DNA from: Candidatus Micrarchaeota archaeon
GTDB lineage: Archaea; Micrarchaeota; Micrarchaeia; Anstonellales; Bilamarchaeaceae
DNA length: 64,000 bases
Assembly: GCA_043827025.1 (NCBI GenBank)
Contig: JBDRPL010000010.1
Coordinates: 18,837-82,836, forward strand
Direction: 5' to 3'
Shown: positions 54,901 to 57,900 of the stretch, piece after piece
How the letters are laid out: the number at the start of each line of letters is the position of its first letter
Numbering within the stretch: position 1 is the first letter of the stretch
Made by a program: the position numbers

Positions 54901-57900
54901 CGACGTAAAGCTCGAAAATGCGATGGTACTTGACGATCGAAGCGGCCATCTTGTTGTCAGGATAATCGACCCCGGAATAGCCAAACAGAAATTTTTCGGC
55001 AGAACTCCATTGCCTGGCACAGGTATCACACAACAGCCGTTTTCTGCAATAGGCACCCCTGAGTATATGGCTCCAGAGGCTTACTGTGGTGACACAAGTT
55101 TCCGTTCGGATGTTTATTCTATAGGTATTTCTCTATATCGCCTTTTATGCAATAAATTCCCTTTCTTCGCCCCGGACTATGATAAACTTATGCGGAAACA
55201 CATGAATGAAACTCCAATCTCTCCGCATGATTTCGATCCGAATATTCCGGAAGAATTAAGTGCCATCATCATGAAATGCCTTGCCAAGGCTCCAAACGAC
55301 AGATATCCCATTGTTTATGAGCTTATTGTTGAGCTGATGATGTGTGCTGAAAGGCTAGGTGTTCCTGTTGATTTCACGCCCTACTCTCCTGAAGATTCAG
55401 ATCGCCTTAGGGTTTCTGAACCTATGCTTGACGTAGCTGGTTTCGGAGGAATTCCAGAATCGGATGCATCATCTTTAGTAGTAGGCGCTGTTGCGATTCA
55501 TCCTCCTGCAAGAAGCTTCAAGCATTGGATGGCAGCAGGTGCAGTTGCATTGACATTAGGTGCTATAGCATATGTTTTCCCAAGCATTGTTTATCAATCA
55601 ATGGTCCCTGTGACTCAAATTCCTCCAACTCCCATTGTTTCTGAGGAAGCAAAAAAGCCCATGCACTCAATTTTCATAGCTTCAGAGCCTGCTGGTGCAT
55701 CCGTAAGCGTCATAGAAGAAAACAGCATGGGAAACCATTGGTTCAGGGTTGTTGGTGAAACTCCCATTGCCAGAAATCAATTCACTGAAGGTACTGCATT
55801 GCTTGTCGAGAGAGAAGGTTATTTTCCAAGGATTCTAATCGTTGACAGGGATAGGGATTTCAATGTTATTTTGCCCCCCTTAAGGGCAGCAGCTCCTGGA
55901 TCGGAGTAGACCTCATTTTTTAATCTTTTGCTACCTATATTTTCTCCTACCTGATTGCTAGACAGGTATAGGTACAACGCTCCGTTAGTCTAGTAAACTT
56001 TTTAGGAAAAAGTTTAATCAAAAACTCTCTCTAAGAAGTTTGGACATCCCGGTTAAGGACTTCAGACTCTCAAGGCTTTTTGGCCAGTGCATTTCAAATG
56101 CCAAAAACCCTGGAAACACTAGGGAACTTTGTTTCCTGTGCCCATTGAAATCGAAACCGATTTCAATCAGGAAGACAGTCAGGGTTTCATAAGCATTCGT
56201 GCATATCTTGCCAAAAATCATAGTCCTCTGGAAACCCGGGTTCGAAGCCCACCTTTTCTTTCTCGCAGAAAGAAAAGCTAGGCGTGACAAAAACCTTTCG
56301 GTTTTTGTCTGTATCGAAACAATTATGTTTCGATTGCGCACCAAAAGAAAGAAGGTGTGATCCTTTTTGTGGATGAAACTCCCGGACGGAGCAATTTCTT
56401 TTAATATCAGTTCTCTAACTGATCAGCACACCTGTGCTGATGTCTACATAAACCCTAAAATAAGCCTCTTGCTGGAGTGGTAAGCATGAGTGGGTTTGAT
56501 ATATACAACTATCCGAAAAAGCTTGATTCAGCCATAAATAAGCTGAATGCTGATTTGAGGGTTAGTGAAGAGAATAAGGAAGACATTGTATCTTTTTCTA
56601 AGGTAAAGCTAGCAAAGGGCTGTACCCACGCCAGGGTTAGCAAGATTATCTATTCTCTTAGGTGTTTAGCTGTTTGGTTAAAGGGATCTTTCAAACAAGC
56701 AACGAAAGATGATTTGATTGCCCTTATTGGCGATCTTGAGGCCAATCAAAAGTATTCGGAAAATACAAAACATGATCTGAAAGTTATTTTGAAAATGTTT
56801 TATAAATGGCTTAAGGGGAATGATGAAGAAGTTCCTAAGGAAATAAAATGGCTAGTACCAAGAATAAAAAACGAAGCCAGTAAATTGCCTGAAGATCTTT
56901 TGACAGAAGATGAAATCCTGCAATTAGCCAATGCAGCCAACCATCCAAGAGACAGGGCGCTTATTCTTGTCTTATATGAAACAGGCTGTAGAATAGGAGA
57001 GATCCTCACCTTAAAGATGAAAAATATTCAGTTTGACCAATATGGCGCAATTTTGAGAGTCACAGGAAAAACCGGTGACAGGAGAGTCAGGATAATCAGT
57101 TCAGCACCTGTTTTAGCTTCCTGGATAGACATCTATGAGAAGGCAAAGGAACCTGAAGCACCTTTATGGGCGCCTCGGGCAACTAAATCAACAGCAAGAA
57201 AAAATGCAGTTAAATTTCTTGACCATAGGTGTGCTTATGAATTAATTAGGCGTTTAGGTGAGAAGGCAGGGATAAGAAAGCACTTACACCCTCACTTGTT
57301 TAGGCATTCCCGAGCAACAGCATTGGCAGGAAAATTAACAGAAGCGCAGATGAAGGAATACTTTGGCTGGGTTCAAAGCTCAGATATGGCAGCTACTTAT
57401 GTGCACTTATCAGGTCGTGATGTTGATAATGCTCTTCTGAAATTGCACGGTTTGGCAAAGCCGGAAGATGAACATGAGGATAAGATGAAAGTTCGATCCT
57501 GTGCAAGATGCAAAGAACACAATTCACCAATTGCAAAATTCTGCATACGTTGTGGATTGCCTTTGGATCAGGAACTTTTGATCAGAGTCGAAAAGGAAAG
57601 AGAGTCAAGCGACGATCTGATGAACAAACTAATGGAAGACAAGGAATTCAGGGAACTCATGATGAAGAAGATATTGGAGAAAGGGTTGGAGAAGACGATT
57701 GCACATTAAGGCGATTGATCCTTGTTTTTCTTTGCTTCTATTTCCTCTTTTCTTATCCTTAATCCAGTAAGTATCGCCCCTGCACTTGCCATCGTTGCAA
57801 TGAAAAAGACTACTGAGCCAATTACTCCAGCAGTTGCGAACCATGCAACTGGAGCAACATACTCTAGTGTAGTTTGAGCTGCTCCCCAGCCTGTCCACAA

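Follow-up and report, generated by a model that had tools for sequence, protein, structure and literature searches.

The interrupted tRNA genes of the Micrarchaeota genome G000 are probably working genes that have been lengthened by insertions of REP-like hairpins, and their transcripts are predicted to be spliced by an epsilon2 endonuclease and RtcB. The introns would be long because they, like the sequence beside them, keep receiving insertions of small non-coding DNA hairpins.

The tRNA-Glu(CTC) gene

The first-pass annotation had presented tRNA-Glu(CTC) as a 415-nt gene with introns of 54, 153 and 133 nt, and this was confirmed. Removal of positions 55994-56047, 56073-56225 and 56247-56379 of the window (the 64,000-nt stretch of DNA that was analysed, Table 1) leaves a 75-nt cloverleaf with 20/20 stem pairs, which ARAGORN calls Glu(CTC). 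On the window itself ARAGORN called no tRNA, and Rfam gave no meaningful match at 55500-57000. The exons align with intron-free Glu tRNAs of relatives. Run X1, a possible source, has DNA contigs that span the gene without change. Nothing from the RNA runs (n=2, same study) aligned to it, which is evidence for neither side.

Since the genes come from a metagenome bin and are missed by standard tools, one may suspect pseudogenes or assembly artefacts. This is extremely improbable: they are the sole copies of their anticodons, their stems are intact and their splice motifs are enriched, the Glu-CTC gene of relative G001 is interrupted at the same three sites, and DNA from a second study (X2) covers 56225-56552, including intron 3.

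Table 1. Position of the features found in the window (window coordinates).
Feature	Position	Strand	Remarks
Free double-hairpin copy	5427..5474	-	E 8e-10
Intergenic hairpin array with two free double-hairpin copies	30008..30260	.	copies: 30008-30055 (+), 30068-30117 (-)
tRNA-Asn(GTT), 84-nt intron at 37/38	47537..47693	+	second tRNA gene in window
tRNA-Glu(CTC) gene, 415 nt, three introns	55979..56393	+	sole CTC gene in assembly
Exon 1, positions 1-15	55979..55993	+	
Intron 1, 54 nt, site 15/16	55994..56047	+	relaxed HBh'; central helix 4/4, intron-side helix at least 4
Module A in intron 1, AT-rich hairpin and ATCAAAA tail	55995..56023	+	begins at intron position 2
Exon 2, positions 16-37, anticodon CTC	56048..56072	+	
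Intron 2, 153 nt, canonical 37/38	56073..56225	+	central helix 3/4, both outer helices
Double-hairpin element, ~55 nt, nested in intron 2	56117..56171	+	
Exon 3, positions 38-59	56226..56246	+	
Intron 3, 133 nt, site 59/60	56247..56379	+	relaxed hBH motif
Double-hairpin block, 54 nt, in intron 3	56284..56337	+	aligns with Arg-TCT 59/60 block; missing from Gln-CTG intron
Exon 4, positions 60-73	56380..56393	+	CCA unencoded; T-rich trailer after
Tyrosine integrase gene, 410 aa	56477..57709	+	directly 3' of tRNA-Glu(CTC)

Census of tRNA genes and introns

The host is a tiny groundwater archaeon, known from a metagenome bin, and its genome is 91.6% complete. Its tRNA genes were located by spliced alignment of 119 tRNAs of relatives to the genome, without use of the BHB motif. 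This gave 42 loci with a score of at least 60, where the reversed genome reached 42 at best, and a masked rescan gave one more, Val-CAC. Boundaries were set by hand at five loci, and introns of the anticodon arm were put at 37/38 by rule. Acceptance by ARAGORN alone is weak evidence, because false splices on the reversed genome were also accepted.

The final census holds 43 loci, 37 of which (86%) carry introns, and 62 introns (1.44 per gene) of 21-153 nt, with a median of 52 and five above 129 nt. Gene counts and length range agree with the earlier ones, but the 61 introns and 3,905 nt given there become 62 introns and 4,045 nt; intron DNA does exceed exon DNA (3,242 nt), as had been said. 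Two or more introns occur in 20 genes, again as claimed, and three occur in five genes instead of four (Glu-CTC, Ile-TAT, Asp, Pro-TGG and the added Arg-TCT). The anticodon set is non-redundant, as described, except for CAT, which is present twice. In 42/42 mature models, 18 to 20 of the 20 stem pairs are intact. A perfect hairpin of at least 7 bp was found in 39 of 61 introns (counted without Val-CAC) versus 1.8 after shuffling, so that the enrichment reported before (35/61 versus 1.6) is upheld.

Genes for His, Gly-GCC and Arg-CCG, already reported as absent, were again not found in the 91.6% complete genome, either whole (masked rescan) or as halves. Split tRNAs were not found for these three either, since the four-piece search, with one reference each, gave background scores only. 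A candidate tRNA at C1:459 was rejected (score 50, five implausible introns, overlap with an IS200 end).

ARAGORN found seven tRNAs in the genome without its intron option and 22 with it, several of them given the wrong isotype. Rfam counts were 13 in G000, the number cited earlier for standard tools, 8 in G001, 4 in G002, 7 in G004, 10 in G005 and 31 in G011; the range of 4-10 stated for these relatives therefore fails for G011 only, a label that may have stood for another genome there. At most 12 Rfam tRNAs were found in 9 of 18 relatives of the family (Bilamarchaeaceae), where such counts, from Rfam or ARAGORN, mislead bin-quality scores. Introns thus explain the 'missing' tRNAs for these two tools, but the Bilamarchaeum type MAG was published with 20 tRNA types by tRNAscan-SE (PMC8561730).

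Splice junctions and processing enzymes

A 4/4 central helix with a flanking helix was present at 39 of the 62 junctions, against 6.0 when introns were swapped between sites and 0.9 after shuffling, these scores including some intron boundaries slid towards the motif. Eleven junctions are strict, 28 are relaxed with a 4/4 helix, 18 have 3/4 and five are weak; the 23 with 3/4 or weaker count against the preferred reading.

The 392-aa endonuclease of epsilon2 size noted in the first pass is real: it matches ARMAN-2 4FZ2 along its whole length (E 1e-131), as a three-unit chain of ~390 aa like that of the epsilon2 type, and keeps Y160, K161, Y236, H251, R275, K282 and W384 (catalytic triad and ASL Tyr-Lys). 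By analogy with the ARMAN-2 enzyme (PMC3239211), EndA would be a homodimer that cleaves relaxed motifs. An RtcB ligase is encoded as well. The precursor would be cut at relaxed bulge-helix-bulge junctions by the epsilon2 enzyme, then joined by RtcB. With a cloverleaf restored on removal, strict or relaxed BHB motifs, and both EndA and RtcB encoded, the inserts have the features of archaeal BHB tRNA introns, and the interrupted loci are very probably working tRNA genes.

Genera with few introns, too, have this epsilon2 enzyme (29 of 30 genomes matched). The enzyme therefore permits the intron burden and does not explain it, and EndA type was rejected as its cause. Rfam covariance models identified no known RNA family, such as group I introns or ribozymes, in the introns, the hairpin array or 18 module/transposase loci.

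Shared blocks and the double hairpin

A block of at least 20 nt shared with another isotype was found in 36 of 62 introns, versus 0.45 after shuffling, and 11 introns match non-tRNA DNA (20 hits), versus none on the reversed genome; for every single copy, this sharing is read without direction (repeat to intron or intron to flank). The 59/60 introns of Glu-CTC (intron 3) and Arg-TCT each consist of a Gln-CTG-type intron, 53 nt in Glu-CTC, and an inserted block of ~54 nt. Glu(CTC) intron 2 is an expanded module-A-like scaffold (see below), whose homologue is a 177-nt intron in G001; same-site introns of relatives, previously called different, are often homologous, as here at 37/38. The Val-CAC intron is composed of a piece also found upstream of an IS200 transposase gene and a 51-nt double hairpin.

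An HMM of the ~55-nt double hairpin gave 10 hits in the genome, four of them seeds, and none on the reversed genome. Seven are intronic (five sense, two antisense) and three are free; the Arg-TCT copy is among the hits, and the one at 56284..56337 lies outside them. The earlier proposal that introns grow by uptake of hairpin blocks is thus borne out by clean block insertions and by a double hairpin in both orientations, which would nest into existing introns either way round. The first pass had missed that the hairpin parts are present away from tRNA genes, too, and far beyond the lineage.

Module A

Module A, an AT-rich hairpin with a conserved ATCAAAA tail 3' of it, is present in 9 of 62 introns (none after shuffling), always sense and in eight cases at offset 1-2; that strict matches are limited to nine introns is a point against the preferred reading. 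It also opens a 45-nt strict-BHB intron in the 16S rRNA. A copy of the tRNA 5' end of at least 8 nt lies upstream of 9 of 42 genes (0.13 expected), and in three leaders module A directly follows the copied nt 1-11.

Exact module A occurs in 33 of 151 genomes of the phylum (32 of 150 excluding G095), the reversed pattern in none. It was found in at least 125 GTDB stretches, including Methanosarcina, Methanobacteriaceae, Woesearchaeota, Clostridia and Cloacimonadota, and in 61 viral stretches (giant-virus contigs). Of 140 cellular copies, 134 show covariation at the foot pair; in the viral copies, which are set in DNA of very high AT content, this pair is looser, which weakens the case. Among 153 loci (a set leaving out L344 of G095 and L324 of the own genome), 24 are within tRNA introns, all sense, and most of the others are intergenic. 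Behind intron copies, the 5' arm recurs in inverted form with only weak enrichment (8.4 versus 7.6 of 14 matches; p 0.015, with kin that are not independent), and this signal is highest in the viral copies. Motif P, an expanded form of module A, gave 22 hits, all in Micrarchaeota and nearly always in tRNA introns.

Insertion itself is shown by comparison, and a DNA-level route for it is likely. Beyond this lineage, module A is a free dispersed repeat, present in other archaea, in bacteria and on giant-virus contigs. Insertion into an exon would survive only where the ends can form a splice motif, insertion into introns and flanks being unconstrained, which would explain why module A is seen at intron positions 1-3. 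REP-like insertions would survive in tRNA genes because a permissive endonuclease removes them. Whether module A founds new introns, beyond decorating old ones, is a nearly balanced question, and we lean slightly against it.

In G000, module A outside introns is nearly confined to tRNA leaders and the rRNA intron, and every intronic copy is sense, so that RNA-level spread also fits. Whole BHB introns would then be copied between tRNA and rRNA genes as in Thermoproteales, by reverse ligation through EndA/RtcB and a later DNA copy (a model summarised in PMC4090602); leader and trailer copies would be escaped intron pieces, and distant free repeats look-alikes or a side branch. It would account for sense copies in 9/9 G000 introns and 24/24 intron loci, all starting at position 1-3, for the near-identical whole introns at 59/60 of Leu-CAA, Leu-TAG and Gln-TTG, and for the confinement of motif P. 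However, copies of the double hairpin have either orientation and also lie free in intergenic DNA, a stretch of the Ser-GGA intron matches the Arg-CCT trailer in reverse complement, blocks are inserted inside introns at places without splice motif, and exact module A, whose foot pair covaries, is common away from any tRNA. We consider copying through RNA unlikely.

Relatives and turnover

The Ile-TAT intron, 30-37 nt in five relatives, has the module-A hairpin only in G000 and G001. Glu-TTC and Ala-TGC are intronless in G000 and carry three and one introns in G001, a turnover within one genus. The relatives were sampled at 88 loci, six of them outside the models; chosen by 5'-exon patterns, these samples miss genes with earlier introns. 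They include introns of up to about 200 nt, a 546-nt tRNA gene in G016, and four-intron genes in G016 (Ile-TAT) and G014 (Leu-CAA). A four-intron parse of G002 Ile-TAT is uncertain, and a doubtful 224-nt call in G014 (L390) was excluded.

This turnover bears on the proposal that selection keeps the shared folds, the excised and probably circular introns being functional RNAs or protein-binding sites, or long introns shielding tRNA genes from integrases. In motif P, a pairing of the hairpin loop with sequence downstream of it is preserved, with covariation, from genus to genus, the search pattern itself having fixed many columns; the median folding z-score of the introns is -3.2, and integrase genes lie directly behind Glu-CTC and Leu-CAG. 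Yet two species of one genus differ by gain or loss of introns, whole genera are intron-poor (8 and 9 of 44 ARAGORN-found genes interrupted in G012 and G013), integrase-adjacent tRNA genes are themselves heavily interrupted, and a C box consensus, which together with a D box marks box C/D guide RNAs, was found in 0/62 introns. Such selection is very unlikely. A search for an att duplicate of the integrase behind Glu-CTC found none.

Search for a mobilising enzyme

For the insertion of DNA hairpins, the likeliest mobiliser is a HUH (Y1) transposase of the single-strand kind, which would work like RAYT on REPs, although on this analogy we hold it doubtful. Module A and the double hairpin resemble REP/REPIN-RAYT repeats as short dispersed intergenic hairpins of conserved structure; the GTAG/GTGG or CGTC tetranucleotide 5' of the hairpin foot was not found, the module A tag being ATCAAAA on the 3' side. 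Pfam detected no Y1 transposase in 147 of 227 ORF pieces flanking module A, and tblastn with the three G000 TnpAs detected none at the 61 viral loci; it gave one match on module loci, at L346. Of 24 genomes, only nine had Y1_Tnp, and none was found in G002, G004 and G016, which are rich in introns (71-89% complete). TnpA neighbourhoods (12 relative loci and three own) held no REPtron-like arrangement, a thin sampling that does not establish absence of a cognate transposase flanked by the repeat.

Discussion

How intron DNA enters archaeal tRNA genes is stated to be open, copying, mobile elements and reverse transcription having been tested in Asgard archaea without success (October 2026 preprint, bioRxiv 10.64898/2026.10.13.758758). 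The G000 inserts are long enough to trace and have recognisable parts, before and after states in relatives, and free copies; donor, direction and enzyme are therefore testable, and repeated hairpins outside tRNA genes are a testable source of introns. Tentatively, module A, as a previously undescribed cross-domain REP-like DNA hairpin, and the nested double hairpin may found and extend the tRNA and rRNA introns of Bilamarchaeaceae-like Micrarchaeota, and may be a visible selfish donor of archaeal BHB introns, with half-finished insertions (copied tRNA 5' end and module) preserved in leaders. Searches of the literature outside subscription papers found no earlier description of module A or of long modular Micrarchaeota tRNA introns, and a search with the motif text gave one, unrelated, match.

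Transposed tRNA introns of Thermoproteales were reportedly described by Fujishima in 2010. Like them, G000 introns are similar in sequence across isotypes and positions (via PMC4090602, PMC4033280 and the Asgard preprint), but what is shared in G000 are blocks smaller than an intron, which nest and invert and are also present away from tRNA genes and in other domains. With REP, REPIN and BIME elements (PMC6006769, PMC3733652) module A shares a short hairpin with a conserved foot tag, an intergenic position, often behind stop codons, and clusters, tandem runs and inverted doublets (here in G069 and in G004 introns). It differs in being AT-rich, without GTAG or CGTC tag, shared by archaea, bacteria and viral contigs rather than species-specific, and low-copy in G000, where no flanked transposase gene (TnpA-REP) was found. 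In the tRNA-Thr of Caldiarchaeum (PMC3293823), too, a duplicated 5' tRNA fragment upstream is tied to intron gain; there it is one 1.8-kb recombinase-coding element, whereas in G000 non-coding inserts of 40-130 nt are found at 9/42 genes.

Asgard archaea (PMC11291895; bioRxiv 10.64898/2026.10.13.758758) likewise have most tRNA genes interrupted, introns missed by annotators, repeated gains, BHB enrichment, and an EndA that is permissive, not causal. Their introns are more numerous (92-95% of genes, 2.2 per gene) and shorter (median 22-23 nt versus 52 nt), so that the G000 set, at 86% and 1.44, is not about the most interrupted known, as had been supposed; up to 87% of tRNA genes are interrupted in archaea with (alpha-beta)2 endonucleases (PMC3239211). 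Asgard cross-isotype families amount to 1.5%, with no identified donor, whereas 36/62 G000 introns share blocks (by another kind of test, a local one), and candidate donors can be seen.

ARMAN-2 ('Ca. Micrarchaeum acidiphilum'; PMC3239211, PMC12397907) shares with G000 the phylum, the epsilon2 type with its catalytic and ASL residues, relaxed hBH/HBh' junctions, sites 59/60 and 53/54, and an interrupted tRNA-Ile(UAU); it has 56% of its genes disrupted versus 86% in G000, whose introns are long and visibly modular. The reviewed length range of 11-129 nt is exceeded in G000, although Asgard tables (Supplementary Data 4 of PMC11291895; bioRxiv) may hold introns above 129 nt or genes with at least four. 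The five longest G000 introns, and those of about 200 nt in relatives, extend the size range for a splicing endonuclease, and the four-intron genes of G016 and G014 exceed the 'maximum of three' stated in 2011 (PMC3239211).

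The tRNA-Glu(CTC) gene and its surroundings

Over the window, ARAGORN found no tRNA, and the sole Rfam match was a tRNA-Asn at 47537. The three-intron tRNA-Glu(CTC) proposed by the first-pass annotation was borne out: when the introns (see the table) were taken out, a 75-nt tRNA with 20/20 stem pairs was left. The gene is present unchanged in a DNA contig of one sequencing run, a possible source, and intron 3 is covered by DNA from a second study. In that run, contigs end at the 3' end of this tRNA, and integrase variants about 93% identical occur. No att duplicate was found for the integrase behind the gene, and an Rfam search of the hairpin array gave no match.

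Positions of features in the window and on other contigs (C) of the genome
Feature	Position	Description
Glu(CTC) intron 1	window 55994-56047	54 nt; site 15/16; junction HBh' (relaxed bulge-helix-bulge, BHB)
Glu(CTC) intron 2	window 56073-56225	153 nt; site 37/38; central helix 3/4 and both outer helices
Glu(CTC) intron 3	window 56247-56379	133 nt; site 59/60; junction hBH (relaxed BHB)
Protein kinase	window 54221-55909	Directly upstream of Glu(CTC); eukaryote-like Ser/Thr; has a transmembrane segment
Tyrosine integrase	window 56477-57709	Immediately behind Glu(CTC); C-terminal zinc ribbon
Hairpin array	window 30008-30260	BIME-like, about ten hairpins; intergenic, neighbours divergent genes
Integrase-homologous fragments	C12:9230 and C5:49598	Behind Leu-CAG; about 4 kb from Leu-GAG
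tRNA-Ile(TAT)	C18:19944-20205	
tRNA-Tyr	C4:2-217 and C31:3974-4113	At contig ends
16S rRNA intron	C24:~22590-22635	45 nt; strict BHB
145-aa protein	C11:10084-10314 (L032:1456-1893, minus strand)	Weak match to tRNA-intron-endonuclease catalytic domain, E 4e-4, below cut-off
EndA gene, IS200 TnpA, tRNA-Arg(CCT) with module-A leader	C6:9124-11910	Within 3 kb

Census of interrupted tRNA genes

The bin, in which the window occupies C10:18837-82836, has 1.33 Mb in 36 contigs and is 91.6% complete. To it, 119 profiles from relatives' tRNAs were aligned with long gaps allowed and the splice motif unused. This gave 42 loci scoring at least 60 (top score on the reversed genome, 42), and a masked rescan added only Val-CAC. 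Boundaries were then refined, anticodon-arm introns being set at 37/38 and five loci placed by hand. The resulting 43 genes, 37 of them with introns, match the first-pass count; 62 introns (median 52 nt, five above 129 nt) amount to 4,045 nt against 3,242 nt of exon, so that the earlier claim of more intron than exon DNA also stands. The introns lie at 37/38 (28), 59/60 (16), 15/16 (9), 17/17a (4), 53/54 (2), 58/59 (2) and 30/31 (1). At 39 of the 62 junctions the central helix was 4/4 and accompanied by a flanking helix, versus 6.0 and 0.9 in two nulls; 18 others had a 3/4 central helix and five were weak. The interrupted gene set is real. Census and rescan did not find tRNA-His, Gly-GCC and Arg-CCG in the bin, as expected of an incomplete one. 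The census has tRNA-Ile(TAT) and just two CAT genes, a combination that matches ARMAN-2-type AUA decoding. One gene, tRNA-Tyr, occurs at the ends of two contigs, which therefore probably overlap there.

The extent of interruption is not a record, contrary to the first reading of about the most interrupted set known, since the published shares of disrupted genes are 56% for ARMAN-2, up to 87% for (alpha-beta)2 archaea (PMC3239211) and 92–95% for Asgard archaea (PMC11291895), with 2.2 introns per gene, a median of 22–23 nt and an arrival route stated to be open (bioRxiv 10.64898/2026.10.13.758758). Archaeal introns are given as 11–129 nt with medians of 12–25 nt (PMC4090602). Within the literature searched, to which the Asgard supplementary tables did not belong, introns of this length and with parts that can be traced in this way appear not to have been described. 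The consulted sections of two Anstonellales genome papers, one of them on Bilamarchaeum, make no mention of introns.

Introns of related genomes

Of 38 loci sampled in five relatives (G001, G002, G004, G014 and G016), models were made for 34, and every one of these had introns (77, median 59 nt). In G001, Glu-CTC spans 418 nt and is interrupted where the gene in the window is, by 85, 177 and 81 nt; Arg-TCT of G016 reaches 546 nt (87/181/203 nt), and four introns each interrupt Ile-TAT in G016 and Leu-CAA in G014. Among 44 ARAGORN-found genes, eight in G012 and nine in G013 have introns. Turnover is fast, as Glu-TTC and Ala-TGC are intronless here and interrupted in G001. The low tRNA counts noted earlier for relatives held in part: among 18 family relatives, Rfam gave at most 12 in nine, 20–22 in two, and at least 31 in seven, and 20 tRNA types are reported for Bilamarchaeum (PMC8561730).

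Many introns contain shared hairpin blocks

Blocks are shared and nested among introns: 36 of 62 had a block of at least 20 nt in common with another isotype (0.45 in shuffles), and 11 matched non-tRNA DNA (0 on the reversed genome). Alignments revealed clean block gains in the 59/60 introns of Glu-CTC and Arg-TCT relative to Gln-CTG, and in the 15/16 intron of G001 Glu-TTC relative to Glu-CTC, which upholds the proposed growth by uptake of hairpin modules. The Val-CAC intron consists of a piece of IS200 leader plus a double hairpin (a two-hairpin element of about 55 nt). Small hairpins would insert at the DNA level to give long introns, and this is probably the cause of intron length.

Module A, an AT-rich hairpin with an ATCAAAA tail, was present in nine of 62 introns, every copy sense and eight at offset 1–2. 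The main rival, intron transposition through RNA, is consistent with this strict orientation. It does not fit inverted and free copies: of ten double-hairpin HMM matches (0 on the reversed genome), seven were in introns (five sense, two antisense; four served as seeds) and three were free, all inside the window. Under DNA-level insertion, module A may start an intron and be kept where its ends pair with four exon bases, a founder role to which we give slightly less than even credence. It lies within an old 30–37-nt Ile-TAT intron in this genome and G001 only, and starts the 16S intron; G001 and G002 have related inserts in their rRNA genes. Short BHB-like rRNA introns, several opening with module A, were seen in this 16S gene, in L137 (G002 16S, six inserts), L142 (G001 23S), L136, L140 and L141. 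The insert of about 650 nt in L138 (G013 23S) sits where ORF-bearing group I introns typically lie. Motif P, an expanded module A whose loop pairs downstream, had 22 GTDB matches, mostly in tRNA introns and all with Micrarchaeota-type labels.

Hairpins outside introns

Copies of at least 8 nt of the gene's own 5' end lay upstream of 9/42 genes (expected 0.13), and copies of at least 6 nt of the 3' end downstream of eight of the 42 (expected 0.77), the latter usually flanking a GAAC-n-GTTC hairpin. In the Ala-TGC, Ala-GGC and Arg-CCT leaders, copied nt 1–11 are followed directly by module A, one leader sharing 40 identical nt with the start of the Gly-CCC intron. Mini-helices made of an acceptor-stem copy, the GAAC-n-GTTC hairpin and an inverted copy occur in trailers and leaders (Leu-CAA, Lys-CTT, Ser-GGA, Ser-CGA, Leu-TAG, Pro-GGG, Pro-TGG, Ala-GGC; Met, Phe, Val-TAC, Cys), in tandem at G014 Ala-TGC; the pattern resembles the product of a double template switch, or of an insertion combined with inversion. 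In Caldiarchaeum, a mobile element is known to have left a 5' fragment of a tRNA (PMC3293823).

Exact module A was found in 33 of 151 phylum genomes (one, G095, unpublished; reversed pattern, 0) and in at least 125 GTDB stretches; among the matches listed, copies stand in tandem in Methanosarcina, and others come from Methanobacteriaceae, several DPANN phyla, Clostridia and Cloacimonadota. A further 61 stretches were viral, in AT-rich DNA and many from giant-virus bins; in L438-L498 (IMG/VR, many GVMAG) module A forms tandem intergenic repeats in giant-virus contigs. Such viruses use hairpins as 3'-end signals, to which these repeats might be related. Of 153 loci examined, 24 were within tRNA introns, all sense, the others being mostly intergenic, often right after a stop codon. 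The hairpin-foot base pair covaries in 134/140 cellular copies. REP-like hairpin DNA (module A, double hairpin) might be the donor of tRNA and rRNA introns, a suggestion made slightly more tentatively than the founder role. The candidate mover of these hairpins, held to be somewhat less likely than not, is an HUH transposase, by analogy to REP/RAYT (PMC6006769). No transposase accompanied module A in the sampled loci. An IS200-end palindrome occurs at five sites, one between the Met and Phe tRNA genes.

Splicing machinery

The genome encodes RtcB ligase and a 392-aa EndA that matches the ARMAN-2 epsilon2 endonuclease (4FZ2) end to end and retains the residues named in PMC12397907; its close relatives are labelled Micrarchaeota / Bilamarchaeaceae (order Anstonellales). 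The tRNA precursors are very probably spliced by these enzymes. EndA is matched in 29 of 30 relatives, intron-poor ones among them, and the epsilon2 enzyme is therefore permissive only. RNase P RNA is divergent, with a match below cut-off.
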